A DNA stretch of 64,000 bases from a virus. The notes under the pieces are model-generated. The model did no database searches and was not told the DNA's origin. It was given only the letters and a program-made list of their open reading frames with translations. How positions within the stretch are numbered: the first letter of the stretch is position 1; the number at the start of each line of letters is the position of its first letter. The position numbers and the translations under genes were made by a program. The stretch lies in IMG/VR virus record IMGVR_UViG_3300000114_000743. The stretch is one strand, 5' to 3'. Shown here piece by piece: positions 3,510 to 64,000 of the stretch.

Positions 3510-4061
3510 ATGGAACAGATAAAAACTAAAAGACTATTGATGACTAAGGCGAGTATAAGTGATTTACCTTTGATAGAAGAAATCGAAAGTGAATGTGACA
3601 AATATTTCCGATTTGACCCACCAATCGCAGCCGAGCACAATCGTTCTTTACGAGAATGTTTAAATATAGGAGATGTGATTCCCGGTGTATTGGAAGATGA
3701 TTATAAAAGGGAAAATTATCATCTATATTATATTTGGAAAGATGGTATCCTTATCGGTTGGCTTGCGTTTTATCTCGAATACCAACAAAATGATACCGCA
3801 TATCTTTCTGTACTATACATCACAGAATCAAACAGAATGAAAGGTATCGGTACTGAAATTATAGAAGCATTGGCGTTTAAATTAGCTGGCTTACAAATCA
3901 AAATTATAAAAACGCATTGTTCTTTGAGAAATGCAATATCTCTTAGTTTTTGGGTGAAGAATGGATTTGACCATATAACAGAGATAGAGTGTACCGGTAA
4001 TCTTACACCTGAAAACTTTGGGGGTATAGGTTTAATGAAAATCATAAAGCCATACGAATAA
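3510..4061 (+). CDS. GNAT family N-acetyltransferase (moron)
   Basis: Acetyl-CoA motif RMKGIGTEII, N..AISFW.KNGF; opposite strand to head genes. Confidence 0.85.
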   Translation: MEQIKTKRLLMTKASISDLPLIEEIESECDKYFRFDPPIAAEHNRSLRECLNIGDVIPGVLEDDYKRENYHLYYIWKDGILIGWLAFYLEYQQNDTAYLSVLYITESNRMKGIGTEIIEALAFKLAGLQIKIIKTHCSLRNAISLSFWVKNGFDHITEIECTGNLTPENFGGIGLMKIIKPYE

Positions 4062-29476: not shown

Positions 29477-29548
29477 GTGACATAAACGCAGAGTAACCGC
29501 GCAAGCGGTTAATGCGGCAAGGTGAACGGTTACAAGCCCGAAGACCGC

Positions 29549-50406: not shown

Positions 50407-53400
50407 ATGAGTTACACGGCGTTACACAATCATTCAATGATAGATAGTCTCTTAGACGGATATGCTACACCTGCCGAGTATCTTGACAAAGCAAAAGCCA
50501 TAGGTTTAAACGGCTTCGCTGTTACAGGGCATGGCGGTTGTTACAGCTACCCCTATTACGACAAAATAAAATCTAATTATCCCGACATGAAAATAATTTA
50601 CGGTATTGAAATTTACGAAGCGTTTGATATGTCAGAAAAATTGGCGGACAATAAATACTTTCACTTAGTTGTCCTCATCCGCAACGAGCAAGGTCGTAAA
50701 GATTTAAACCGCCTCGTAACAAAAAGCAACACGGAAGGATTTTATTACAAACCACGTCTCGATATAAACGCTTTCAAGGAATACGACTGTAATAATTTCA
50801 TAGTTTTAAGTGCCTGTCTCGCCGGAAAGCTCGCCCGAACCGAAGACTACAATCAATGTAAAAAATATATCGCCGAATATAAGGCAACATTCCCACATTT
50901 TTATTTGGAAATGCAAAGTCACAAACACATCGAGCAATCGCAATATAATCAGAAAATCTTACGATTGTCAAACGATACCGAAACCCCGTTCGTAATAACG
51001 ACAGATTCACATTTTGTAAACGCCGACGACGGAAAATGGCAGAATTACCTCGTTACAATAGGAAGAAATCAAAAAGGTGACAACGCCAAAGACAAACTCG
51101 AATTGTCAGAAATTTACGACGGCTGTTATTTGCAAACCGAAAACGAAATATACGAAATAATGACACCCCAAATCGGCGCAGACAACGTAAAACTTGGTCT
51201 TGATAACACTAATAAAATCAATGATTTTATCGAATCCGTAGATATGCCGTTTCAAGAGCCGCAATTACCGGAATTTGAAGTTCCTGCTGAATATAAAACG
51301 ACAAAGGAATATATGCGTTATTTGATTAAAGAAGGTTGGAAAGACAGAGGGTTCGATAAGTTATCTGACGAAAAGAAAGCCCAATACCATAACCGCCTCG
51401 AATATGAATTTGAAATTATCTGCAACATGAATTATGAAGGCTATTTTCTCATAGTATGGGATTTTTGTAATTATGCAGACAGTATTAATATGGCAAGGGG
51501 TGCGGGGCGCGGAAGCGGTGCAGGTAGTTTGATTTGTTATTTATTGAAAATAACGAACCTCGACCCCATCAAATACGGTTTGATTTTTGAAAGATTCCTG
51601 AACCCGGAACGCATTTCGCTTCCTGATATTGACAGCGATTTCGGCGACAGGGATAAAATCATTCAATACATGGAAAGCAAATACGGTAAAAACAAGGTCT
51701 GCCAAATTGCAAACTTCGTTTACATAACGCCGTTAATGGCTATTCAAGATGTTGGCCGTCTTTTAGGTTTATCGTACAGCCTTACACAAAAAATAAGTGA
51801 GTATTTTAACGTAGACTCTTTTGAACAAGCGTTTGAAATAAATCCGGGTTTGAAGGACAAATACTCGGAACAAATAGAATTGTTTGAAATAGCTTCTAAA
51901 ATCAGCGGCAGGATTCGCGGAATAAGCCAACACGCCGGGGGAGTTTGTGTTTCAAAAACCGATTTGTCCGATTATATGCCGTGCAAGGTCGGTAAAAACG
52001 GCGAACAGGTTATTCAAGTAGATATGCGAGTTGTAGAGCAAATTGGTTTGGTAAAGTTCGATATTTTAGGTGTGGAAACGCTTAACATTATCCAACAAAC
52101 AGTAGAAGACAGTGGGTTGACGCTCCGGGACGTTGATATAAAAAACGAAAATTTCGAGAATGACCTGCAATCATATGAATTACTCGGCGAAGCTAAAACA
52201 AACGCTGTTTTCCAGTTGGAATCATCCGGTATGAAAGACTTGCTAATCCGCCTCAAACCGCAGAATTTGGAAGAATTAAGCGCAATCCTCGCACTCTACC
52301 GCCCCGACACCATGCAAATGCTTGAGCAATATATCGCAAACAAACATGACAGCACAAAAATATCCTATATACACGAAGACATTAAGCCGTTTTTGCAATC
52401 GTCATACAGCTGCATTATATATCAGGAACAGGTCATGGATATTGTAAGGAAATTCGGTGGAAGAACTTATGGAGGCGCAGACCTTTTCAGAAAAGCCATC
52501 GGGAAAAAGGATAAGGTTCTCGTGAAAACTGAAGTCGAAAAGCTAAAAACAGAAATTATAGAAAACGGTTATTGCGAAAATACTGCGGCGAAGATATGTC
52601 TTTTGTTAGAGGATATGGGTGGTTACAGCTTCAATAAGTCCCATTCTACCGCCTACGCTGTTCAATCATTGCAAACGGCTTATTTAAAATCCCACTATCC
52701 GTTGCAGTTTATGAAAGCGTTATTAAATTCAAAAAAAGACAATAACGGCAAGCTCAATAAGTATATGGTTGATGCCAAAGAGTTCGGTGTTAAGATTGTT
52801 CCCCCGCACATAAACAAATCTACCGATAAATTTGAAATCGTAGATGGAAAGATATTGTTCGGGCTTTCGGCAATCAACGGACTCGGCGAAAGCATTACCC
52901 ATCAAATCTTAGATGAACGCCGCCAAAACGGCAATTTCAATAACCTTCACGATTTACAAAGCAGAGTCAAGTTAACCGTCAGTCAAATGGTAGCATTAAT
53001 AAAATCCGGCGCAGTTCCTACAAGCGATAAAGAAAATTATCTAAAAAGGTATGCCGATAGCTTATTTGAAAGAAGGCAATTCAAGCCATACAAAACAGTT
53101 TCGATGAACCTTTCCGATTTGAAATTGAATTACGGAATAGACACGAAAGACAAGGAAGAGCGGCTACGGCTTTTTAACATAGCAAAAGAAAGAGATTTCA
53201 ACAAACAGCAAAACGAAAAACTCGAAAAGCATATGTGCGAATTTACCGAAAAACACATTAGTGATAAAGATTTCTGGGAGTTTCAAGCGTTGTCGGTCTT
53301 CATCGAAAACAATCCGTTCGAGAGTGTCTACGAATACGTTAAACCGTTTGACGAAGTAGAAGATGATGCAAGCGCAGTTGTCATCGGTATCATATCAAAC

Positions 53401-53640
53401 GTACAGAAAAAGACCGACAGAAAAGGCAAAAAATACGCCATTCTTCAATTATATTCAGCTTTCGGAATCATTGAAATCATGTGTTGGAACTCACAATACT
53501 CCATGCACACCGATTTAATAATCAAAGGAAGTAAAGTCGCAGTCAAATGTAAGAAGAAAGACAACAAAGCCTACGCCGCGATTTTAAAATCCTATGACAA
53601 ATGGCTTAACGATACGAAAAGTTTAAGAGGGGAGGTTTGA
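50407..53640 (+). CDS. dnaE: DNA polymerase III alpha subunit
   Basis: PHP domain LHNHS, GRGSGAGS, PDIDSD, KFDILG, YSFNKSHS. Confidence 0.97.
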   Translation: MSYTALHNHSMIDSLLDGYATPAEYLDKAKAIGLNGFAVTGHGGCYSYPYYDKIKSNYPDMKIIYGIEIYEAFDMSEKLADNKYFHLVVLIRNEQGRKDLNRLVTKSNTEGFYYKPRLDINAFKEYDCNNFIVLSACLAGKLARTEDYNQCKKYIAEYKATFPHFYLEMQSHKHIEQSQYNQKILRLSNDTETPFVITTDSHFVNADDGKWQNYLVTIGRNQKGDNAKDKLELSEIYDGCYLQTENEIYEIMTPQIGADNVKLGLDNTNKINDFIESVDMPFQEPQLPEFEVPAEYKTTKEYMRYLIKEGWKDRGFDKLSDEKKAQYHNRLEYEFEIICNMNYEGYFLIVWDFCNYADSINMARGAGRGSGAGSLICYLLKITNLDPIKYGLIFERFLNPERISLPDIDSDFGDRDKIIQYMESKYGKNKVCQIANFVYITPLMAIQDVGRLLGLSYSLTQKISEYFNVDSFEQAFEINPGLKDKYSEQIELFEIASKISGRIRGISQHAGGVCVSKTDLSDYMPCKVGKNGEQVIQVDMRVVEQIGLVKFDILGVETLNIIQQTVEDSGLTLRDVDIKNENFENDLQSYELLGEAKTNAVFQLESSGMKDLLIRLKPQNLEELSAILALYRPDTMQMLEQYIANKHDSTKISYIHEDIKPFLQSSYSCIIYQEQVMDIVRKFGGRTYGGADLFRKAIGKKDKVLVKTEVEKLKTEIIENGYCENTAAKICLLLEDMGGYSFNKSHSTAYAVQSLQTAYLKSHYPLQFMKALLNSKKDNNGKLNKYMVDAKEFGVKIVPPHINKSTDKFEIVDGKILFGLSAINGLGESITHQILDERRQNGNFNNLHDLQSRVKLTVSQMVALIKSGAVPTSDKENYLKRYADSLFERRQFKPYKTVSMNLSDLKLNYGIDTKDKEERLRLFNIAKERDFNKQQNEKLEKHMCEFTEKHISDKDFWEFQALSVFIENNPFESVYEYVKPFDEVEDDASAVVIGIISNVQKKTDRKGKKYAILQLYSAFGIIEIMCWNSQYSMHTDLIIKGSKVAVKCKKKDNKAYAAILKSYDKWLNDTKSLRGEV

Positions 53641-55913
53641 CGGTGCTAACAAACGAACAGCATACTTTCACGGTAGTTCCGACATACACGCGCTATTACA
53701 AAGACGGTTTCGGTATTTACGAATTTTATACCGAAGATGCAGGAATACCCAACTTAAACGAGAATATTAAAGAGACCGATGCTTTTGACTTTTTCGAGGA
53801 AGACAACAAAAGAAAAACAGTTTATACGGGCATAATGCTTGGCATATGCCAAACGCTTGAACATAACATACCGTATAGCCTGACCGCTAAAATGGAGTAC
53901 AGCAGCAAATTCAATCAACATCAATACCGAATTATCAACATATCGCCGCTAAGACCCAAATCGAACATTGAATACAGACGATTCTTATATACGATTTTGA
54001 CGCAAAAGCAAACCGACACGTTGGTTGAAGTATATCCGAACATAGTAAATGAAATCATTGAAAACCCGACTTTTGAACCGGATTACAACAAGTTGAACGG
54101 AATAAAAGAAAAGACGTTCACAAGAATCCGGAATAAAATCCTCGACACCTATGTAATAAGCGACTTACTTGTCATGCTTCAACCACTCGGCGTCACTTAC
54201 AAAATGATTCTCCGTCTCGTAGACGGTGAACCCAACAGCCGTCTGTTAAAACAACAGTTAGAAGAAAATCCGTATGAACTCACCCGAATACACGGCTTAG
54301 GTTTCAGTTCAATAGATAAATTCGCGATAAAACTGCGCCCCGATTTATTAAAATCACAGCATCGTGTTGCCGCTTGCATTAAATACAATCTTAAAGAAAT
54401 AGAAAATTCCGAAGGTCATAGTTGGATTTATATAGAACGACTGACTCAACTCGTTAAAAAACTTGTTCCTGAGTGCAGAGATTCTTATAAGGAAGTAATA
54501 AATACTTGTCGGAAAGAGTGCGCTGAAAATAAACCGTCGTTCCTGTATACCGACGAAAAACGCGTCGGTATGTACACGAATTACCTCTACGAATTGATGA
54601 GCGCAAATAAACTATGGGCGTTGCAAAACGCAGACAATCTCTACATAGATGTTGACTACGAAGCCGCGATTGAAAAAACAAACGAACAAAACGGATTTGA
54701 GTTGACGGAAGAACAGTGCGCGGCGGTAAAAAGTGTACGAGACAATAACGTAACGATTATAACAGGAAGCGCCGGAAGCGGAAAAACGTCAATCGTTAAA
54801 GCAATCGTAAATATGTACAATCACTATGATGTGGCATTAACTGCGCTGTCGGCAAAAGCTGCGCGTCGTATGACCGAAGTAACGGGAGCGAGAGCAACGA
54901 CAATACACCGCTTGCTTGAATGTGATGCAAAAGGTTTCAAGAAACGTCATTCCAATCCGTTGTATCAAAAATTGATTATCATTGATGAAGCAAGCATGAT
55001 AAACAGCTATTTATTTTCCTCTTTACTTGATGCAATATCTCTGCACAGTAAAGTGGTTATAGTTTTCGATTTCGCTCAACTTTCCCCAATCGGTACAGGA
55101 AACATCGCTGCCGACCTATTGACTTCAAAATTGCCGATATTCCGTTTCACCAAAATACACAGACAAGCCGAAAAATCCGGCATATTGGTTGACGCCAATA
55201 AAATCCGCATAAACGAATCGCCGATAACCGAATTTGACGAGCAAATAGTAAACGGTGAATTACAGGACATGATTTATTATTTCCGTGAACAACCCGTGAA
55301 CAACGACACATACGAACAGTTGAATGACTTGGCATTAAAAACTTTCAAGCACTTGTTAGAACAGAATGTCAGCATAGACGACATTTCGGTTATTGTTCCG
55401 CGAAAACAAAGTGTGATGAACAGTGTCGGCTATTTCAATAGAAAAATGCAGGAAATCGTCATTCCCGGCAAAGTTCCGTACATGGAATACGGTGAAAAAA
55501 TCTTTAAACTCGGCGCAAAGATAATCCAAAAGGTAAATAACTATGATAAAGATGTCGTAAACGGCGAGATAGGTTACATAACAGAAATTTTAAAACCGAA
55601 CAAAGATAATAAATACGATTTCACGGTAGACTTCGGTGATAAAAAAATCGTGGAATATAAGCGTAACGAATTAGAACAAATCGACTTGGCTTATGCGATT
55701 ACGGTTCATTCTGCACAGGGAAGTCAATACAAATACGTTATCATCGTCTTAGACATGACCCATTTCGTTTTGCTGGATGTCTGCCTGTTCTACACGGCTA
55801 TTACGAGAGCGAGCGAAAAATGCTACTGCATAGCTCAACCTAAAGCGTTTATCCATGCGCTTTCAAACAGTAAAGCAGAAGAACGGCAAACATTCCTGCC
55901 GGAGTTGATTTAG
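53637..55913 (+). CDS. recD2: RecD2-like SF1 helicase
   Basis: GSAGSGKT, IIDEAS, QLSPIG, YAITVHSAQGS, YTAITRA. Confidence 0.92.
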   Translation: MTVLTNEQHTFTVVPTYTRYYKDGFGIYEFYTEDAGIPNLNENIKETDAFDFFEEDNKRKTVYTGIMLGICQTLEHNIPYSLTAKMEYSSKFNQHQYRIINISPLRPKSNIEYRRFLYTILTQKQTDTLVEVYPNIVNEIIENPTFEPDYNKLNGIKEKTFTRIRNKILDTYVISDLLVMLQPLGVTYKMILRLVDGEPNSRLLKQQLEENPYELTRIHGLGFSSIDKFAIKLRPDLLKSQHRVAACIKYNLKEIENSEGHSWIYIERLTQLVKKLVPECRDSYKEVINTCRKECAENKPSFLYTDEKRVGMYTNYLYELMSANKLWALQNADNLYIDVDYEAAIEKTNEQNGFELTEEQCAAVKSVRDNNVTIITGSAGSGKTSIVKAIVNMYNHYDVALTALSAKAARRMTEVTGARATTIHRLLECDAKGFKKRHSNPLYQKLIIIDEASMINSYLFSSLLDAISLHSKVVIVFDFAQLSPIGTGNIAADLLTSKLPIFRFTKIHRQAEKSGILVDANKIRINESPITEFDEQIVNGELQDMIYYFREQPVNNDTYEQLNDLALKTFKHLLEQNVSIDDISVIVPRKQSVMNSVGYFNRKMQEIVIPGKVPYMEYGEKIFKLGAKIIQKVNNYDKDVVNGEIGYITEILKPNKDNKYDFTVDFGDKKIVEYKRNELEQIDLAYAITVHSAQGSQYKYVIIVLDMTHFVLLDVCLFYTAITRASEKCYCIAQPKAFIHALSNSKAEERQTFLPELI

Positions 55914-55982: not shown

Positions 55983-56852
55983 TTGAAAATAGTAAGCCTA
56001 TTTGACGGAATTTCTTGCGGAATGGTCGCGCTTGAACGAGCCGGAATAAACGTGGAAGAATATCATGCTTTTGAAATCGAACAAAACGCAATAACCGTCA
56101 GCAAAAAGAATTACCCGCAAATTAAACACCACGGAAATGTTTATGAAAATGACTTTAAGAAGTTTGTCGGGTTCGACCTTCTTATCGGCGGAAGCCCGTG
56201 TCAAAGCCTCAGCATAACACAAAGCAAGAAAAGAAAGCATTTAGACGGTAAAAGCAAGCTGTTTTTTGAATATGTAAGAGCGAAGAAAACAGTAAACCCG
56301 CGCTATTTCCTGTTTGAGAACGTCGCCAGCATGAACGTGGAAAGCAAGCGAATAATCTCTGAGCTTCTGGGTTGCGAACCGATTTTAATTGATAGCAACT
56401 GCTTTTCGGCACAAGACAGACCACGGCTATATTGGACGAATATCCCAAATATCAAAACAAATCTGAAAGCAAATCCAACAGTCTTAAAAGACATATTAGA
56501 AAAAGAAGTCGAAGAAAAATATTTCTATAACCAAAAAATATCCGGCATTGATATGAAGAAAAAAGTTTGTGCGACGTTAGACATTAACGGTCACGATATT
56601 TTAAAGCGTGTAAATAACCCGAATTTCAAATGCCAGACATTGACAACTTGCGGCGGCGGAAACACGCAAAAGAAGGTAATCGACGGCGTAAGAGCAAGAA
56701 AATTGACCCCCGTCGAATACGAGCGTCTTCAAACCCTGCCAGACGGTTACACCGAAGGAATCGCAACTACAAACAGATACACGGCAATCGGCAACGGTTG
56801 GACAGCAGACGTGATAGCATACATATTTTCATTTTTGCCAAACGCTATATAA
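55983..56852 (+). CDS. C5-cytosine DNA methyltransferase
   Basis: SLFDG, GGSPCQ, ENV, QDRPR, R.LTPVEYERLQ, IGNGW. Confidence 0.95.
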   Translation: MKIVSLFDGISCGMVALERAGINVEEYHAFEIEQNAITVSKKNYPQIKHHGNVYENDFKKFVGFDLLIGGSPCQSLSITQSKKRKHLDGKSKLFFEYVRAKKTVNPRYFLFENVASMNVESKRIISELLGCEPILIDSNCFSAQDRPRLYWTNIPNIKTNLKANPTVLKDILEKEVEEKYFYNQKISGIDMKKKVCATLDINGHDILKRVNNPNFKCQTLTTCGGGNTQKKVIDGVRARKLTPVEYERLQTLPDGYTEGIATTNRYTAIGNGWTADVIAYIFSFLPNAI

Positions 56853-56875
56853 AATTACACAGAGAAGGTGATTTA

Positions 56876-57529
56876 CTGAAAGTATTGGAATTATTCGCCG
56901 GAACAAGGAGCATATCAAAAGAATTCGATGCCGACGGACATGAAACATATACAATAGAAATTGACAAACGGCACGGCAACATAACCCTTTACGAAGATAT
57001 ATTAAATATTACATCAGAGCAAATATTAAAAACATTCGGAAAACCCGACATTATTTGGGCAAGCCCTCCTTGCACCAGTTACAGTATCGCCGCAATTTCT
57101 CATCACAGAGCGAAAGAAGCAAACGGCAACCTCGCTCCTAAAAGTGAATTTGCTAAATTATCAGACCAACTCTTGTTACAAACATTCAAATTAATTAAAG
57201 AATTAAATCCAAAATATTGGTTTATCGAAAACCCCGTGGGCGGTTTACGAAAAATGGATTTTATGACAAATGTTCCGAGATACATGGTTACATACTGTCA
57301 ATACGGCGACACAAGGATGAAGCCTACCGATGTATGGACTAATCATCCCGAACCTTGTTTTAAACCCCCATGTAAAAACGGAGATAATTGCCATGTAGCC
57401 GCACCGAGAGGAGCAAAGACAGGAACGCAGGGAATCAAAAGTGCGATACAGAGAGCGGTTATTCCACCCGAATTGTGTAGACACATAGTTAAAATATGCT
57501 GCAAGGATAAAGGGGTGGTCGGTATTTGA
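56876..57529 (+). CDS. Short C5-cytosine methyltransferase-like protein (putative CTG start)
   Basis: KVLELFAG, WASPPCT, IENP; AAGGTG RBS. Confidence 0.85.
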   Translation: MKVLELFAGTRSISKEFDADGHETYTIEIDKRHGNITLYEDILNITSEQILKTFGKPDIIWASPPCTSYSIAAISHHRAKEANGNLAPKSEFAKLSDQLLLQTFKLIKELNPKYWFIENPVGGLRKMDFMTNVPRYMVTYCQYGDTRMKPTDVWTNHPEPCFKPPCKNGDNCHVAAPRGAKTGTQGIKSAIQRAVIPPELCRHIVKICCKDKGVVGI

Positions 57530-58266
57530 GATTAATATACGGCGACTGTCTTGTCGAAATGGATAAATTGATTAACGAAGATATAAAAATTGATATGATT
57601 TTGACCGATTTGCCATATGGAAGAACCCAAAACCGCTGGGACACAATAATTCCGTTCAACGAACTGTGGTGCAGATATAAAAAACTTATAAAAGAAAACG
57701 GTTGTATTGCCTTATTTGCAGATGGTTTATTTATGGCAGACCTAATGAACTCAAACCGAAAAATGTGGAAATACAATCTGGTATGGGACAAAGTTTTGAT
57801 AAGCGGTTTTCTCAATGCAAACCGTATGCCGTTACGACAGCACGAAGAAATATGTATTTTTTATAACAAGCAACCCACATATAACCCTCAAAAAATCATA
57901 GGAAAACCAAATCACAGCAAAGGCAAACCGAAAAACTGTACTAACAATAACTACGGCTCATTCAAGTTTGCCGACAACAGAGAATCGCTCGGCGACATGA
58001 AGCATCCAACGAGCCTGTTGAAATTTTCAAAACCTCATCCGTCAAAAATGCTTCACCCGACAGAAAAGCCCGTAGAGCTATGCGAATGGTTGATAGAGAC
58101 TTTTACAAACGAGCATGAAACCGTGTTGGATTCATGTATGGGAAGCGGGTCAACAGGTATTGCTTGCTTAAAAACAAACCGTAATTTTATTGGAATCGAA
58201 TTAGACAATGAAATTTTTGCGAAAGCAAAAAACAGAATATCAATTTTGAGGATGGTGATTGATTGA
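57526..58266 (+). CDS. Beta-class N6A/N4C DNA methyltransferase
   Basis: DLPY, HPTEKP, VLDSCMGSGSTG. Confidence 0.93.
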   Translation: MRLIYGDCLVEMDKLINEDIKIDMILTDLPYGRTQNRWDTIIPFNELWCRYKKLIKENGCIALFADGLFMADLMNSNRKMWKYNLVWDKVLISGFLNANRMPLRQHEEICIFYNKQPTYNPQKIIGKPNHSKGKPKNCTNNNYGSFKFADNRESLGDMKHPTSLLKFSKPHPSKMLHPTEKPVELCEWLIETFTNEHETVLDSCMGSGSTGIACLKTNRNFIGIELDNEIFAKAKNRISILRMVID

Positions 58267-58865
58267 AAAAAGATTGGACGGGAAATCAAAACAGCATATT
58301 TAAAACCCTCGGCGCATCCAATCATACTGAAAAAGACCGAGAATTAAACGATTTCTATGCGACGGAACCGAAAGCTATTGATGTTCTTTGCGGTATAGAA
58401 AAATTTGAAGGTCAAATCTGGGAATGTGCCTGCGGTGAAGGGCATATGTCGAAGCAGTTGCAAAAACACGGTTATGACGTTATAAGCTCCGATTTGATAG
58501 ATAGGGGTTTCGGGGTAGGTAATATAGACTTTTTAAAATGCGATGAATTGTTTGACGGCAATATAATCACAAACCCACCGTATAAATTTGCTAAGGAATT
58601 TATCGAAAAAGCTCTTGATATTATTCCCGATGGAAAGAAAGTTGCAATGTTTTTAAAAATACAGTTTCTCGAAAGTAAAGCAAGAAAAGAAATGTTTAAG
58701 AAACATCCACCGAAAACGGTTTATGTGTCGAGTTCAAGATTGCTTTGTGCGAAAAACGCTATGTTTGACGATATGAGAGCCGGGGGTGGCAGTGCGGTCG
58801 CTTACGCATGGTATGTCTTTGAGAAAGGGTACAAGGGGGATTCTGTTCTTAAATGGGTGAATTAG
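58263..58865 (+). CDS. Small amino (N6A/N4C) DNA methyltransferase
   Basis: FYATEP, WECACGEG, ITNPPY. Confidence 0.88.
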   Translation: MKKDWTGNQNSIFKTLGASNHTEKDRELNDFYATEPKAIDVLCGIEKFEGQIWECACGEGHMSKQLQKHGYDVISSDLIDRGFGVGNIDFLKCDELFDGNIITNPPYKFAKEFIEKALDIIPDGKKVAMFLKIQFLESKARKEMFKKHPPKTVYVSSSRLLCAKNAMFDDMRAGGGSAVAYAWYVFEKGYKGDSVLKWVN

Positions 58866-58884
58866 AGGAAAGGAAGAAGCGTGA

Positions 58885-59409
58885 ATGATAGTAAATAAAA
58901 TTGCCAATAGCGGCGATGACGAATTCTACACTCCGATGTATGCCATTGAACCAATATTAAAATACATAAAACCCAATTCAATTATATGGTGTCCGTTTGA
59001 TGAAAAAGAAAGTCTTTTCGTTAAAAGGTTCATAAAAGAAGGGTATACGGTAATTGCAACGCACATCAACAGCGGTGAAGACTTCTTTGAATATGAACCG
59101 CCGGAGTGCGATTACATAATAAGCAACCCGCCATATTCCTTGAAAAGTGAAGTGTTGAGAAGGCTTTTTGAAATAGGTAAACCGTTTGCAATGCTGGTCG
59201 GTGTCGTCGGTTTATTCGAGAGTCAGAGACGTTTCGATATGTTCAAAACAAATGATTTTGAAATCCTCTACATGAACAGAAGAATTGCATACTTCAAAGA
59301 TTACGCAGAACAAAAGCCATCCCTAAATCCGCCTTTTTCAAGCGTATACCTGTGTAGCAAAATGTTACCTAAGCAAATCATGTTCGAGGAAATAAACAAG
59401 TCAGCATAA
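58885..59409 (+). CDS. Small amino DNA methyltransferase
   Basis: DEFYTP, IWCPFD, ISNPPYS. Confidence 0.8.
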   Translation: MIVNKIANSGDDEFYTPMYAIEPILKYIKPNSIIWCPFDEKESLFVKRFIKEGYTVIATHINSGEDFFEYEPPECDYIISNPPYSLKSEVLRRLFEIGKPFAMLVGVVGLFESQRRFDMFKTNDFEILYMNRRIAYFKDYAEQKPSLNPPFSSVYLCSKMLPKQIMFEEINKSA

Positions 59410-59420
59410 CAAATTATAAC
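59405..59420 (+). repeat. CATAACAAATTATAAC motif
   Basis: Direct read; overlaps the stop codon of the 58885 gene. Confidence 0.7.
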
Positions 59421-59457
59421 ATGAAAAATATTATATTGCGAAAGAAGGGAAGTTTAG

Positions 59458-59913
59458 ATGGCGGATTTTGATAACAACAGATTCCAAAGTAAAAATCAAG
59501 AATACGCTACGCCGACAGATTTATTCAAAGTTTTAAATAATGAGTTTCATTTCACAATGGATGTTTGCGCCGACGAAAACAACAAAAAGGTTGACACATA
59601 TTTTTCAGAACAGGAAAATGCCTTGATTCAAGACTGGAAGGGCGTCTGTTGGATGAACCCTCCATATAAAAACATGAAAAAGTGGGTCATAAAAGCCTAC
59701 GAAGAAAGTATAAAACACAATTCAACCGTCGTTTGTCTTATACCTGCAAGGACGAACACGTTATGGTGGTATGACTACTGCATGAAAGGTGAAATAAGAT
59801 TCATTAAAGGCAGACCGAAATTTGATGGCTGTATACACGGGTTGCCGCAACCATTAGCGATTGTAGTGTTTGGTGACAGATACAAAGGAAATTACAAGGC
59901 GGTGAACTTTTAA
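59458..59913 (+). CDS. Phage N6-adenine DNA methyltransferase (lambda-like Dam family)
   Basis: YATP, DVCA, WMNPPY, LIPARTNT.WW. Confidence 0.9.
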   Translation: MADFDNNRFQSKNQEYATPTDLFKVLNNEFHFTMDVCADENNKKVDTYFSEQENALIQDWKGVCWMNPPYKNMKKWVIKAYEESIKHNSTVVCLIPARTNTLWWYDYCMKGEIRFIKGRPKFDGCIHGLPQPLAIVVFGDRYKGNYKAVNF

Positions 59914-59947
59914 GAAAACATAAAAACAATTCAAAAAAACGAGCGAG

Positions 59948-60586
59948 GTGACAAATGTAAATAGCACATTATTAATAGATGAATATGTAGTTTATATACA
60001 CACAAACATAACAAACAATAAAAAATATATTGGAATAACATCATACGAAAACCCTAAAAGAAGATGGAAGGGTGGAAGCGGATATAAAAATCAACCATAT
60101 TTTTACAATGCTATAAAGAAATATGGTTGGGATAATTTTATTAATGAAATAATTGACAAAGGACTTTCTAAAAATGAAGCAGAATCAATGGAAATAGAAT
60201 TAATATCAAAATATAACACTACAAATAAAGAATTTGGCTACAATTTGTCAAACGGCGGAGCTAAATATGGCAAGCATAGCGATGAAACTAAAATGAAAAT
60301 AAGCATGATTCGTAAAGGCATTATATTTAGTGACGAACATAGAAAAAATCTAAGTAAAGCACATAAAAATATTATTCAAACACCAGAACAAAACTATAAG
60401 AATATGATGAGTAATCCAAGAAGAAAACCAGTAATTTGCGTGGAAACACAAATGGTTTATGCAAGTATAAGGGATGCTGGCAGAAACACTAATATTAGTT
60501 TTAAGCTAATAGCCGCAATATGTAATAAAAAATATGGTCGTAAAACTGCTGGCGGTTATCATTGGAAATATTATATGAAGGGGTAG
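59948..60586 (+). CDS. Free-standing GIY-YIG homing endonuclease with NUMOD repeats
   Basis: VVYIH....KKYIGIT, HSDETKMKIS, PVICVET...YASIRDA. Confidence 0.88.
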   Translation: MTNVNSTLLIDEYVVYIHTNITNNKKYIGITSYENPKRRWKGGSGYKNQPYFYNAIKKYGWDNFINEIIDKGLSKNEAESMEIELISKYNTTNKEFGYNLSNGGAKYGKHSDETKMKISMIRKGIIFSDEHRKNLSKAHKNIIQTPEQNYKNMMSNPRRKPVICVETQMVYASIRDAGRNTNISFKLIAAICNKKYGRKTAGGYHWKYYMKG

Positions 60587-60589
60587 TGA

Positions 60590-61615
60590 ATGACACTATA
60601 TAGCAATGAGATAGTATTTAGAGGACACCCCGATCGTGTCTGCGACCAAATATCCGCCTCTCTGCTTCGCGCCTATATGGACGGCGATTCAAACACCCGC
60701 GCCGGAATCGAAGTCTGCGGAGGCAAGAAAAGAATCTTTATAACCGGCGAAGTCACAAGCAAAGCAATAGTTGATGTTGGACAAATTACGAAAAGAGTGT
60801 TGCGCGACATCGGATATTCGACCGAATACGAAATCATTAACAATTTGGGATTGCAAAGCCCAGACATCTCGAAAGGTGTAGATATAGGCGGTGCCGGAGA
60901 TAACGGCATGATGTTTGGATATGCCTGTAATGACACAGCGGAATTATTGCCGACAGCAATGGTGATATTACAGCGATTTGCCGAGGATTACGAGCATTTG
61001 CGAAAATACAACAGCAACTTTCTTCCCGATGGAAAAGCGCAGATAACCGGATATTACGATGACGATTTTAAACTTATTAAGATAAAAGATTTTACAATAT
61101 GTTATCAAAACTTAGAAATCTGCCGTGACATGACTGACAAAATCTTGAAGGATAACGCAAAATTCATTTGTGATGATTACGGTATTGAAATTGAAAACTT
61201 TAATATAAATCCAACCGGTAAATTTTTAATAGGCGGGTTCGAGGGGGATTCCGGGCTTACGGGCAGGAAGATTGTTGTAGACGCTTATCAGTCATTTGCG
61301 AATGTCGGCGGCGGATGTATGAACGGAAAAGATCCATCGAAAGTTGATTTCAGCGGCGCGTATAAAGCAAGACAAATAGCTTGCACATATCTGAAACAAA
61401 GAGATTTGAAGTGGTGTGAAGTTCAATTAAGCTATTCAATCGGATTGAAACGACCTATGGCTGTTTACATTAACAGCGATATTGGGAGTATAAAGCCACT
61501 CCCAACATTATTCATTGATTGTGAACCGTCAAACATAATTTGTGATCTTGATTTGAAACGCCTGAATTTTGAGGAACAAGCTAAATTTGGACATTTTAGA
61601 AAAGCATTTCAATAA
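60590..61615 (+). CDS. metK: S-adenosylmethionine synthetase
   Basis: GHPDRVCDQIS, GAGDNGMMFGYA, PDGKAQIT, GLTGRKIVVDAY, GKDPSKVD. Confidence 0.95.
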   Translation: MTLYSNEIVFRGHPDRVCDQISASLLRAYMDGDSNTRAGIEVCGGKKRIFITGEVTSKAIVDVGQITKRVLRDIGYSTEYEIINNLGLQSPDISKGVDIGGAGDNGMMFGYACNDTAELLPTAMVILQRFAEDYEHLRKYNSNFLPDGKAQITGYYDDDFKLIKIKDFTICYQNLEICRDMTDKILKDNAKFICDDYGIEIENFNINPTGKFLIGGFEGDSGLTGRKIVVDAYQSFANVGGGCMNGKDPSKVDFSGAYKARQIACTYLKQRDLKWCEVQLSYSIGLKRPMAVYINSDIGSIKPLPTLFIDCEPSNIICDLDLKRLNFEEQAKFGHFRKAFQ

Positions 61616-61658
61616 TAGAAATCTGCATAACAAAATACATTATGGAGTGTGATACTGA

Positions 61659-64000
61659 TTGAAATTAGGAAGTTTGTTTTCAGGTAGCGGAACGTGTGAA
61701 CTTGCGGCAACCTTATGCGGAATAGAACCTGTATGGGCTTCGGAAATCGAAAAGTTCCCTATTGAAGTAACTACAAAGCGTTTCCCGAACATGAAGCATT
61801 TAGGTGATATAACAAAAATAAGCGGCGCAGAAATTGAACCTGTAGATATTATAAGTGGAGGCTCACCTTGCCAAGATGTCAGCGTGGCTGGTAAAAGAGG
61901 GGGGTTAAATGCCGAGCGTTCCGGGTTGTTTTTTGAGTATATAAGAATAGTCAAGGAAATGCTGGAAGCAACTAATGGCGAATACCCAAAAATCATTTTA
62001 TTTGAAAATGTCCCCGGATTGTTAAGCAGCAATAAAGGTGCAGATTATATGACGGTTCTCAGTGAATTTCAAAATTTAGGATTCATACCTGACCCCGGTA
62101 TATTCGATGCACAATTTATGGGTGTTCCGCAAAGAAGGAAGAGAGTGTTTATAGTTTGCGTAAATGGGAGCACTTTTCAAGTGAGGAAGACGAATACATC
62201 ACTAACAATATCAATGGAAATTCTTGTGCAAATATTGCAAGGGCTTTGGGTAGACATGAAGGAAGTATTATCAAAAGAGCCGGAAAACTTAGAGCAAGGA
62301 ATAAAAATAGAACCATCAGACACTTTACTGACGAAGAGGATGCTTTCATTAGAGAAAACGTTGGGAAAAGACGTATGGCTTATATTGCAAAAGAGCTTGA
62401 AAGAACAAACGGAACAGTTAGGGATAGAGCAATTCGTCAACTCGGATTTACTAAAGATGAACTTAGATATAACGGTGGCGCAGAAGTTTGGTCATCAAAA
62501 AACGGATATTCAAGAACAACAAGAATCGTTGATGGACAACGAAAAGAAGTGTTTTTGCATAGAGAAATTGCTTCGCAAAAATATGGACGAGATTTACGAA
62601 ATGGCGAAATCGTCCATCACGCAGATTTGGACAAGGGAAACAATGAAGAAAAAAATCTGTTTGTATGCAGAAACAATGCTCAACATCGCAGAGTACATAA
62701 GTCACTCACCCCAATTATTACAAAATTGTTCAAACGGAATATTATTAAGTTTAATTTTGATGAAGGAGTTTACGAATTATGCGAATAAACGATTGCTTAA
62801 AGCAAATGGAATCATGGGAAGGGATTTGGATTTCAAATCTTTATCCGAAAGAATTTCAACCAATAGAATCGAGATTGAGCGGAATATTAGAAATGAATGT
62901 GCCGGAGAAATTTTATTTAAGCCAGAAAGCGTGTACGGGAATTTTACGCAGAGCGACGAATCGGAGGAAGGAATTACCGAGAATACTGAAAGAAGCTCTT
63001 ATGCGGCAAGCGGGTATGACGGATTCAACTTCGCTCTCACGGGCGACACAAGTTTTATCGTTGGAGTAAATTGTGGTTTGTCAACCGGCAAAAACGGTAT
63101 CATTGAAAAAAACATGAAAAAGACAGCCGGTGGCAATGATACATCTGCAACATTGTGTTCTGCTTACGGAACAAAATGGAACGGCAATGCAGGCGCATAC
63201 AACGGCGATAATTTTGTTTTGGATGAAGCAAATGAAGACGTGATTTGTGTTGCGACACAACAAACCAACGCCGAAATTATGGTCGATAAATGCCCCACAA
63301 TTACCAAAGCCGCAGGAACGAGCGGAAACAACAAGCCTTTCGTCTGTTTACCCGAAAATCTCAGTTATGGCGTAGTTTCTAAAGGAAACGGCGAAGCCTT
63401 TTTAACGAAAGAACGACATATGAGTTTATCGGTAGGTGGTGGTCAGGCAGGACAAGGCTATCCGTGCGTATTAACCGAAGAAGTAGATGGAATCGGAATA
63501 AGCGGTCAAATCGCCGTTACTCTCGATGCAAATTCTTATAAAGGTTGCGATGTACGAGGAGGGATTGAACGCGAAGTTGTATTAACAGCGGGATTTATCG
63601 GGGGACAAGGAGCTAAAGCCGGAAGTATTGGATATGCGGAAGAGCAATCCCCAACGCTTCGTTCAGAGCAAGATGTTCATGTTGTTACATATGATACTTT
63701 GGCAATTCACCAAAACGCAGATGGAGAAGTTAGAGAAAGCGAAGTAGCATATGCAATCAATACAAACAGTAATGCAAGCGGAAGAAATGTGCCGCTGGTG
63801 TATTCCTTTGATTCATTGTCATCAAATTCAATGAAATCACAAAATTCAAATTCCGGGTGCAGGGAAGTTGATGTCGCAAAAACGATTGATACAAGTTCAC
63901 AAGACCCGTCTAAAAATCAAGGTGGTATCGCGGTTGTGTATGGAATAGCGACAAAACAATTTTCTCAAAATATTATTGAGAATGTATCACCGCCAATTAT
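61659..64000 (+). CDS. Long C5-cytosine DNA methyltransferase (alpha frame), runs off window
   Basis: Manual translation: LGSLFSGSG, GGSPCQD, ENVPG, GVPQRRKRVF, CAGEILFKPES, then TL-type variable modules; no stop codon in 780 codons. Confidence 0.92.
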   Translation, partial: MKLGSLFSGSGTCELAATLCGIEPVWASEIEKFPIEVTTKRFPNMKHLGDITKISGAEIEPVDIISGGSPCQDVSVAGKRGGLNAERSGLFFEYIRIVKEMLEATNGEYPKIILFENVPGLLSSNKGADYMTVLSEFQNLGFIPDPGIFDAQFMGVPQRRKRVFIVCVNGSTFQVRKTNTSLTISMEILVQILQGLWVDMKEVLSKEPENLEQGIKIEPSDTLLTKRMLSLEKTLGKDVWLILQKSLKEQTEQLGIEQFVNSDLLKMNLDITVAQKFGHQKTDIQEQQESLMDNEKKCFCIEKLLRKNMDEIYEMAKSSITQIWTRETMKKKICLYAETMLNIAEYISHSPQLLQNCSNGILLSLILMKEFTNYANKRLLKANGIMGRDLDFKSLSERISTNRIEIERNIRNECAGEILFKPESVYGNFTQSDESEEGITENTERSSYAASGYDGFNFALTGDTSFIVGVNCGLSTGKNGIIEKNMKKTAGGNDTSATLCSAYGTKWNGNAGAYNGDNFVLDEANEDVICVATQQTNAEIMVDKCPTITKAAGTSGNNKPFVCLPENLSYGVVSKGNGEAFLTKERHMSLSVGGGQAGQGYPCVLTEEVDGIGISGQIAVTLDANSYKGCDVRGGIEREVVLTAGFIGGQGAKAGSIGYAEEQSPTLRSEQDVHVVTYDTLAIHQNADGEVRESEVAYAINTNSNASGRNVPLVYSFDSLSSNSMKSQNSNSGCREVDVAKTIDTSSQDPSKNQGGIAVVYGIATKQFSQNIIENVSPPI
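62156..62788 (+). CDS. Nested HNH endonuclease with two Myb/SANT-like repeats (frame +2 of the MTase)
   Basis: FSSEEDEYI / FTDEEDAFI repeats; LHRE.A...GR.L...EIVHH.D.DK.NN...NL....QH..VH. Confidence 0.85.
   Translation: MRKWEHFSSEEDEYITNNINGNSCANIARALGRHEGSIIKRAGKLRARNKNRTIRHFTDEEDAFIRENVGKRRMAYIAKELERTNGTVRDRAIRQLGFTKDELRYNGGAEVWSSKNGYSRTTRIVDGQRKEVFLHREIASQKYGRDLRNGEIVHHADLDKGNNEEKNLFVCRNNAQHRRVHKSLTPIITKLFKRNIIKFNFDEGVYELCE
62779..63069 (+). CDS. Nested EcoHK31I-beta-like MTase polypeptide (frame +1 of the MTase)
   Basis: ESRLSGILEMNVPEKFYLSQKACTGILRRA...KELP.ILKEAL; AAGGAG RBS 9 nt upstream. Confidence 0.75.
   Translation: MRINDCLKQMESWEGIWISNLYPKEFQPIESRLSGILEMNVPEKFYLSQKACTGILRRATNRRKELPRILKEALMRQAGMTDSTSLSRATQVLSLE

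Follow-up and report, generated by a model that had tools for sequence, protein, structure and literature searches.

A run of seven methyltransferase genes and a riboswitch-free metK in a gut phage: a predicted self-methylation module

Why would a phage carry seven DNA methyltransferase (MTase) genes in close succession, together with a gene for S-adenosylmethionine (SAM) synthetase? The question is raised by IMG/VR record IMGVR_UViG_3300000114_000743, an 82.7 kb sequence classed as a provirus (completeness estimate 62%), of which we analysed a stretch of 64,000 nucleotides (nt), hereafter the window, corresponding to bases 17396-81395 of the record. From position 55983 to the window end, Pfam, PHROGs and NCBIfam identified nine co-oriented genes on the + strand, which encode seven DNA MTases, a GIY-YIG endonuclease and the SAM synthetase MetK. 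Our results suggest that this island is probably an anti-restriction module, in which the phage would methylate its own DNA with SAM from deregulated synthesis. This function is predicted, and four observations carry the prediction: the gene content of the island, the intact motifs of its enzymes, the linkage of metK to MTase genes and the loss of a riboswitch from the viral metK.

metK, methyltransferase genes and the SAM-I riboswitch

A first-pass annotation of this DNA had described three C5-type and four amino-type MTases with metK, and all three databases confirmed this content. The island start that it gave, 55983, is exactly the start of open reading frame (ORF) 1. The C5-cytosine enzymes are ORF1, ORF2 and ORF9, the amino-type enzymes are ORF3 to ORF6, and the seven fall into five sequence families. 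The same annotation saw a single contiguous run, which stood as far as orientation and packing are concerned (the spacing ranges from a 4-nt overlap to 69 nt, with a Shine-Dalgarno-like sequence at every start), but it had overlooked the GIY-YIG gene, ORF7, and an HNH endonuclease gene nested within ORF9. Outside the island, PF00145, PF01555 and PF02384 gave zero matches across the 82.7 kb record, so the clustering of the MTases is not a matter of chance.

The association between metK and MTase genes was then followed in 44 viral and 80 bacterial loci with an ORF8-type MetK, using six-frame hidden Markov model scans and purpose-built profiles. Of the 44 viral loci, 37 have an MTase ORF no further than 1 kb from metK, compared with 4 of the 80 bacterial ones. 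Widening the distance to 3.5 kb gives 13 bacterial loci, which cluster with viral copies in the MetK tree and have the appearance of prophages. An independent scan of 27 whole viral metK records with the profiles PF00145, PF01555, PF05869 and phrog_799 detected at least one MTase in 25; in 19 records the nearest one is no more than 1 kb from metK, and in 24 no more than 3.5 kb. These records hold 0-4 MTases (median 1) versus seven here, making seven the highest number in the sample. Since PF05869 and phrog_799 are nearly absent from the metK-bearing relatives, the composition of the island is not conserved; only the link between metK and an MTase is.

A separate arrangement was seen in a distant relative of 140 kb, whose DNA polymerase III (Pol III) alpha is 28% identical. 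Here, L013:3732-13362 encodes in order a GIY-YIG endonuclease, an unknown protein, C5 MTases of 810 and 286 amino acids (aa), MetK, an unknown 221-aa protein and a class-V aminotransferase.

The same counts bear on the idea that MetK is an independent metabolic cargo, serving for example polyamine metabolism, autoinducer-2 (AI-2) related metabolism or general fitness, and that its proximity to MTase genes is functionally meaningless. MetK has been listed among the general auxiliary metabolic genes of Heliusvirales (PMC11283538), a Streptococcus agalactiae prophage study would favour such a role (PMC8223999), and in relatives metK also adjoins unrelated genes, the aminotransferase gene of L013 being one example. 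Proximity without meaning fits poorly, however, with an MTase within 1 kb in 37/44 viral loci, spread over several MetK clades, versus 4/80 cellular loci, and with 24 of the 25 MTase-bearing viral records having one within 3.5 kb of metK. We consider this explanation quite unlikely.

In addition to their neighbours, the viral and cellular genes differ in their leaders. Rfam placed a SAM-I riboswitch 60-160 nt upstream of metK in 5 of the 7 cellular copies tested. A covariance model, R1, built from these five riboswitches recovered the element in 59 of the 80 bacterial loci and in 0 of the 44 viral loci. Searches with RF00162 found no SAM riboswitch in the window or in L001, and R1 found none in the window. 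A riboswitch and an adjacent MTase occur together at no locus (cells 0, 59, 51 and 14 for the 124 loci, with a Fisher test that is descriptive only), and the association between riboswitch loss and MTase adjacency is descriptive, short of statistical proof. Because the SAM-I riboswitch has been lost, MetK would go on making SAM for a heavy methylation load. The earlier proposal of a 'self-supplied' module therefore gains comparative support, both from the MTase beside metK in 37/44 viral loci and from the SAM-I counts (0/44 vs 59/80).

The metK gene itself (ORF8; 60590-61615, + strand) begins 3 nt after ORF7 and encodes a compact protein of 341 aa, which matches PF00438 (71 bits), PF02772 (71.2 bits) and PF02773 (114.8 bits), all above the cut-offs. 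The protein aligns to residues 5-363 of Escherichia coli MetK, with an 8-aa deletion and a gating loop 5 aa shorter, and its catalytic residues match those of the E. coli enzyme (GHPD, GAGD, the K165 equivalent, D-x-G-x-TGRK and GGGxxxGKDxxKVD). Compact MetK proteins of about 340 aa, 60-66% identical to ORF8, are encoded in 129 bacterial genomes, mostly metagenome-assembled genomes (MAGs) of uncultured gut Bacilli, Erysipelotrichaceae and Clostridia. A phage-specific truncation was consequently rejected as the origin of the short form, the cellular copies being equally long. In a FastTree phylogeny of 124 MetK sequences, on which the viral copies are polyphyletic, the window copy falls in a well-supported clade (99) together with 7 viral copies that adjoin an MTase gene and 9 cellular copies, of which 7 are labelled Erysipelotrichaceae. 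ORF8 is best read as deriving from a compact cellular MetK of the host lineage. At the only cellular locus whose surroundings we examined (L111, a contig of 765 kb), the neighbours of metK are a Pfs-like nucleosidase gene and other housekeeping genes. As a further observation, about nine tRNA genes lie directly downstream of a riboswitch-controlled cellular metK in an Erysipelotrichaceae MAG (L060:11673-12548).

Six compact methyltransferases and one giant one

All seven MTase ORFs are free of internal stops and keep their catalytic or family-invariant residues: the C5 motifs F-x-G, P-C and E-N-(V/P) are intact in ORF1, ORF2 and ORF9, and (D/N)-x-P-Y is present in ORF3 to ORF6. ORF1 (55983-56852, + strand, 289 aa) is a C5-cytosine DNA MTase that covers positions 1-319 of the 324 in PF00145 (117.8 bits), scores above the cut-off of TIGR00675 (110.5 bits) and shows motifs I (LFDGIS), IV (SPCQ), VI (ENV), VIII (QDRPR), IX and X (GNGW).

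ORF2 (about 56885-57529, + strand, about 214 aa) is a minimal C5-type MTase, matching PF00145 with 43 bits and phrog_757 with 152 bits. Its start may be the TTG at 56885, the first canonical one, or the CTG at 56876, which aligns with the family start MKVLELFAG; the gene-caller version begins further upstream and has 243 aa. The protein carries FAGTRS, SPPC, ENP, TYCQYGDTRMKPTD and CxNGxxCH, and retains every element that is invariant in its family (FxGTRS, SPxC, ENP, TYCQYGDxRMKPTD, CxNGxxCH and the motif-X-like IPxxLCxHI). Homologues of about 210 aa number at least 8000 in this family (65-78% identity), and the possibility that ORF2 is truncated was dropped, about 210 aa being the normal family length. 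An AlphaFold2 model of ORF2 (predicted local distance difference test, pLDDT, 85.5) gave the catalytic domains of DNMT3A/B, M.HaeIII and M.HhaI as top Foldseek matches (E about 1e-8).

The four amino-type enzymes follow. ORF3 (57526-58266, + strand, 246 aa), which overlaps ORF2 by 4 nt, is a beta-class MTase of the N6-adenine/N4-cytosine type, covers positions 1-220 of the 221 in PF01555 (98.7 bits) and has motif IV (DLPY) before motif I (DSCMGSGST). ORF4 (58263-58865, + strand, 200 aa) is an NPPY amino-MTase that matches phrog_799 with 222.7 bits and has no Pfam match; it consists of the catalytic domain alone, without a separate target-recognition domain, and belongs to a family of at least 7984 homologues of about 200 aa (66-81% identity) for which Pfam has no model. 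Its AlphaFold2 model (pLDDT 71.8) has the catalytic domains of M.TaqI, M.BseCI and CamA as top Foldseek matches. Sequence searches of the PDB with ORF2 and ORF4 gave no meaningful match. ORF5 (58885-59409, + strand, 174 aa; phrog_799 101.7 bits, PF13651 28.1 bits), another NPPY amino-MTase, is a distant paralogue of ORF4 with 31% identity; its family comprises 2031 cluster representatives at E<=1e-3, and the invariant DExYTP, WCPFD and NPPY are kept in ORF5. ORF6 (59458-59913, + strand, 151 aa) is a phage Dam-type N6-adenine MTase, with matches to PF05869 (108.5 bits) and phrog_111 (159.7 bits), motifs DVCA and NPPY, and a score of 84.3 bits against TIGR01712, under the cut-off of 97.

The last MTase of the island, ORF9, is of a different build. 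This C5 MTase (PF00145) of 1102 aa starts at 61659 on the + strand and runs for another 967 nt beyond the window (L001:1501-4809). Its first 170 residues contain motifs I-VIII, whereas motifs IX-X are found at about residues 1030-1075. The PF00145 match comes in two pieces, residues 1-278 and a stretch near 1017-1076, which HMMER aligns to residues 15-196 and 246-320 of M.HhaI; residues 998-1076, which include the last of the modules described next, align in HMMER to the recognition loop of M.HhaI, where a TL dipeptide occurs, and to motifs IX and X. Between the two pieces, residues 498-1002 hold about 14 tandem modules that resemble TL-type target-recognition elements, spaced by 27-49 aa, each reading small-x-T-[LI]-x-small ahead of a hydrophobic strand. 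A position matrix derived from these modules gave 4.5 matches per variable region in 112 homologues versus 0.09 in shuffled sequences (about 48-fold). M.SPRI has three specificities, the same number as the modules visible in it. Used as a positive control (K02124), it showed three such modules, at residues 280, 310 and 358, of which the matrix scores two at 7 or more and misses a TV variant. The ORF9 N-terminal core is about 35% identical to that of M.SPRI. More than 7000 proteins, 606-1929 aa long and encoded mostly by Clostridia and Clostridia phages, make up the ORF9 family, and relatives of the module region are found in Heliusvirales phages (NatCom Oscillospiraceae and Ruminococcus phages).

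From its sequence, ORF9 is most likely a multispecific enzyme that would recognise several motifs through its tandem modules. A bolder version, in which most of the 14 or so modules are working recognition domains and a single protein protects a dozen or so unrelated motifs, is possible but doubtful. To our knowledge, such a number would be several times that of any characterised multispecific MTase. Inactive 'pseudo' domains are known among the multispecific MTases of the SPbeta group. If the bolder version were true, a hyper-multispecific ORF9, six further MTases and a riboswitch-free MetK would give near-universal protection from methyl-sensitive restriction, and the large family of 600-1400-aa C5 MTases that Clostridia and Clostridia phages encode, with its more than 7000 homologues, would amount to an unexplored store of modular 5-methylcytosine (m5C) specificities.

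ORF9 is also overlapped by coding sequence in the two other frames. An HNH endonuclease ORF of 210 aa (62156-62788, + strand; PF13392 HNH_3, 28 bits) is nested in another frame, followed in the third frame by a 96-aa ORF (62779-63069, + strand). Both the HNH frame and the MTase frame score as coding, the latter throughout ORF9. The nested pair also occurs in a 736-aa homologue on an unrelated contig (L135:3111-3746 and 3728-4015). The region concerned, residues 176-465 (about 290 aa), is shared in the MTase frame by 37 homologues; a one-off insertion was rejected on this ground and because the L135 homologue has the nested ORFs as well. In L001, Rfam detected neither a group I intron nor any other RNA family near the nested HNH ORF (E<=1), so an intron reading of ORF9 is unsupported. 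Among homologues of the giant C5 MTase, those on two other phage contigs (L005:10001-13063 and L006:10001-13324) carry inteins (Hint_2, Intein_splicing and Hom_end) and have HNH genes as neighbours. The gene for this giant enzyme thus seems to be a favoured site of selfish elements.

A second nuclease gene, ORF7 (59948-60586, + strand, 212 aa), sits between the Dam-like ORF6 and metK. It encodes a free-standing GIY-YIG/NUMOD3 homing endonuclease (PF01541 30.2 bits together with NUMOD3, phrog_314 127 bits; TIGR01453 39.7 bits, under the cut-off) and is, as judged by these matches, a selfish element and no restriction partner of the MTases. This matters for the view that the island is part of a restriction-modification (R-M) or other defence system directed at competing phages. 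MTases are half of an R-M system, and the contig stops 343 nt after ORF9, which would leave some room for such a view. Nevertheless, every ORF in the roughly 9 kb from 55983 to the end of ORF9 is assigned and none is a restriction enzyme, the only nucleases, ORF7 and the nested HNH protein, match homing families, and the Type I/IIG family N6_Mtase (PF02384) is absent from the record. An R-M system was accordingly rejected, no restriction enzyme being present in the island, and membership in a defence system of any kind is highly improbable. The absence of a cognate restriction enzyme, already remarked on in the first-pass annotation, was thereby borne out.

Restriction pressure and the weighing of explanations

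Several tetramers are strongly depleted in the window: CTAG occurs 0 times versus 47 expected, GGCC 8 versus 91 and GATC 24 versus 164. CCWGG has 3 sites in the 64 kb, and many 6-mer palindromes occur 0-3 times versus 9-21 expected, with CAATTG and GATATC absent and TTCGAA, TCATGA, ACATGT, GTCGAC and ATGCAT found once each. CCGG, GCGC, GCNGC and GANTC show no strong depletion in the window. The depletion of palindromes shows heavy restriction pressure on the phage, which would therefore combine site avoidance with methylation.

The island lies directly behind genes for DNA replication. The portal and terminase genes are on the minus strand in the left part of the record, and a plus-strand replication module, which extends up to 55913, encodes a Sak4-like protein, a DnaB-like helicase, a primase, a RecJ-like exonuclease, Pol III alpha (50407-53640, + strand) and, as its last gene, a RecD2-like helicase (53637-55913, + strand), all assigned with Pfam and PHROGs. 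ORF1 begins 69 nt past the end of the helicase gene. A scan for promoter-like sites gave 40, versus 41.1 in shuffled sequences, which is no excess; terminator-like sites were in slight excess only (22 vs 15.5, standard deviation 4.2), and no boundaries of transcription units were set. Among 50,697 phage records, megablast detected no counterpart of the island; the search with the RecD2-like helicase yielded zero viral relatives, and a search for contigs encoding the ORF9 product found none on record. In the early region, Rfam matched a Twister-P5 ribozyme at 29487-29541 (+ strand; 51 bits, gathering threshold 37.6, E 1.2e-7). The phage is best read as a temperate, SPbeta-like phage from gut Bacillota.

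In the scheme that we infer, which extends to the timing of expression, the motifs methylated, the protection and the effect on the SAM pool, the seven orphan MTase genes would be co-transcribed with the replication genes. Their products would methylate replicating phage DNA at many motifs prior to packaging, and ORF9 alone would probably recognise several of them through its tandem modules. Progeny DNA would then reach the next cell pre-protected from a large number of methyl-sensitive restriction systems, those of Type II among them. The SAM-I riboswitch shuts the cellular metK off at high SAM; MetK without this switch would keep supplying the methyl donor during infection. The 'broad-spectrum' protection that had been proposed for this island likewise stands as a prediction.

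A temperate phage could also use these genes differently. By lysogenic conversion, MTases and MetK expressed from the prophage would rewrite the host methylome and alter host expression or physiology, the protection of phage DNA being secondary. Orphan MTases can regulate genes, and the record is classed as a provirus. Moreover, in S. agalactiae the metK of prophage 12/111phiA has been linked to aggregation, glycocalyx and biofilm (PMC8223999). In the present phage, however, the genes are in a replication operon without a recognisable promoter of their own, the usual site of lytic early or middle genes, seven MTases of different classes exceed the expected regulatory need, and the strong avoidance of palindromes indicates that selection came from restriction. 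We regard conversion of this kind as unlikely. The rewriting of the host epigenome, which had also been suggested for the island, finds no support beyond the presence of the genes.

Returning to the proposal that the island methylates phage DNA against restriction, a number of observations weigh against it. The strong avoidance of palindromes means that methylation does not make avoidance unnecessary. Heavy methylation would in turn expose the phage to methyl-dependent (Type IV) restriction. In the comparison of loci, riboswitch loss and MTase adjacency provide 3 well-supported independent contrasts, 7 in all, and a sign test is not significant. The effects reported for the S. agalactiae prophage MetK concern aggregation and biofilm of the host and not the methylation of phage DNA (PMC8223999). 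MetK scores 259.4 bits versus the TIGR01034 equivalog cut-off of 309.4; this shortfall fits a compact form, since the riboswitch-controlled cellular metK genes of gut Bacilli encode equally long proteins that are 60-66% identical. Motif IV of ORF3 reads DLPY and not DPPY, DxPY variants (DIPY, DAPY, DLPY and DVPY) being present in 9 of 63 N6_N4 ORFs of related phages and genomes. Finally, neither ORF4 nor ORF5 has a recognisable target-recognition domain, and in Foldseek the ORF4 model resembles some tRNA MTases (TrmM and aTrm11 folds) at similar E-values.

Several of these points would suit a graveyard, in which a number of the MTases have decayed to inactivity or have RNA or protein as substrate and the effective anti-restriction spectrum is narrow. 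The DLPY of ORF3, the short length of ORF4 and ORF5 (174-200 aa, without recognition domain) and the TrmM- and aTrm11-like fold of ORF4 speak for it, as do the scores of ORF6 and MetK under the NCBIfam equivalog cut-offs and the HNH gene nested in ORF9. Yet all ORFs are uninterrupted and keep family-invariant residues, the ORF9 frame is coding throughout, and the families of ORF2 and ORF4 are very large and 65-80% conserved at the same short lengths, which argues for purifying selection. A graveyard is distinctly improbable. Taken together, the four other explanations fit the data less well than a module for self-methylation.

Relation to known systems

Orphan phage MTases and the multispecific enzymes of the SPbeta group are textbook knowledge. 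The present island resembles the SPbeta-group Bacillus phages (M.SPRI, M.Phi3TI and M.SPbetaI, studied in the Trautner laboratory) in that an orphan C5 MTase gene lies downstream of a module for Pol III alpha, a RecJ-like protein and a helicase. The replication module resembles the SPbeta yor module, behind which lies the phage MTase gene mtbP. As in the SPbeta-group MTases, ORF9 combines one catalytic core with an enlarged variable region, in which modules of about 40 aa, built around T-[LIV], follow one another in tandem. Unlike M.SPRI, it has 1102 aa rather than 439 and about 14 modules rather than 3, possesses an additional conserved region of about 290 aa overprinted by the HNH gene, and is accompanied by six further MTases and MetK.

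Phage T3 encodes a SAM lyase (SAMase) that removes SAM and so disables SAM-dependent restriction, in its conflict with restriction and bacteriophage exclusion (BREX) systems. ORF8, as proposed here, would also be a phage enzyme acting on the host SAM pool. It would act in the opposite direction, adding SAM synthesis for the phage's own MTases, and the two enzymes are unrelated in sequence. With the cellular S-box metK of gut Bacilli and Erysipelotrichaceae, ORF8 shares 60-66% identity as well as its size (about 340 aa) and its shortened loops; the phage gene differs in lacking the SAM-I riboswitch, present in 59/80 cellular loci, and the housekeeping neighbours seen in L111.

MetK is annotated in 134 phage records. 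In the Ca. Heliusvirales, phages of gut Clostridia, a C5 MTase is encoded in 67% and a SAM synthetase in 58.9% of genomes, these being the commonest auxiliary genes (PMC11283538). Their genomes are about 50-80 kb; unlike them, the phage studied here has a replication module of the Pol III alpha type. The Ca. Heliusvirales paper reports neither a linkage of MetK to MTases nor the loss of its riboswitch (PMC11283538). The metK-bearing viral records that we sampled hold the 0-4 MTases given above as compared with seven here. Streptococcus Javan prophages also have a compact MetK, 37-38% identical to ORF8, which in Javan55 lies beside adenine and cytosine MTases, and in S. agalactiae 12/111phiA an endonuclease gene adjoins metK, as in this island (PMC8223999). 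The Streptococcus prophages differ in having two MTases instead of seven, and the published phenotype is host aggregation and biofilm (PMC8223999). Thus, phage MetK beside MTases was known already. New are the size of the array, the MTase with 14 modules and the division between a riboswitch-bearing cellular metK and a riboswitch-free, MTase-linked viral one, a gain over the literature that is one of degree and detail rather than of principle.

In a small space, the island brings together seven naturally occurring MTases of five families. Two of its members, the mini C5 MTase of about 210 aa and the NPPY enzyme of about 200 aa that lacks a recognition domain, represent very large families without a solved relative detectable by sequence, and new m5C specificities might be obtained from the giant modular C5 MTase. 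Methylation encoded by phages decides which hosts can be reached, and in microbiomes it is a confounder when phages are linked to hosts through methylation. Finally, the riboswitch-free, MTase-adjacent viral metK leads to a testable claim, namely that phages may deregulate SAM synthesis specifically to feed the methylation of DNA.

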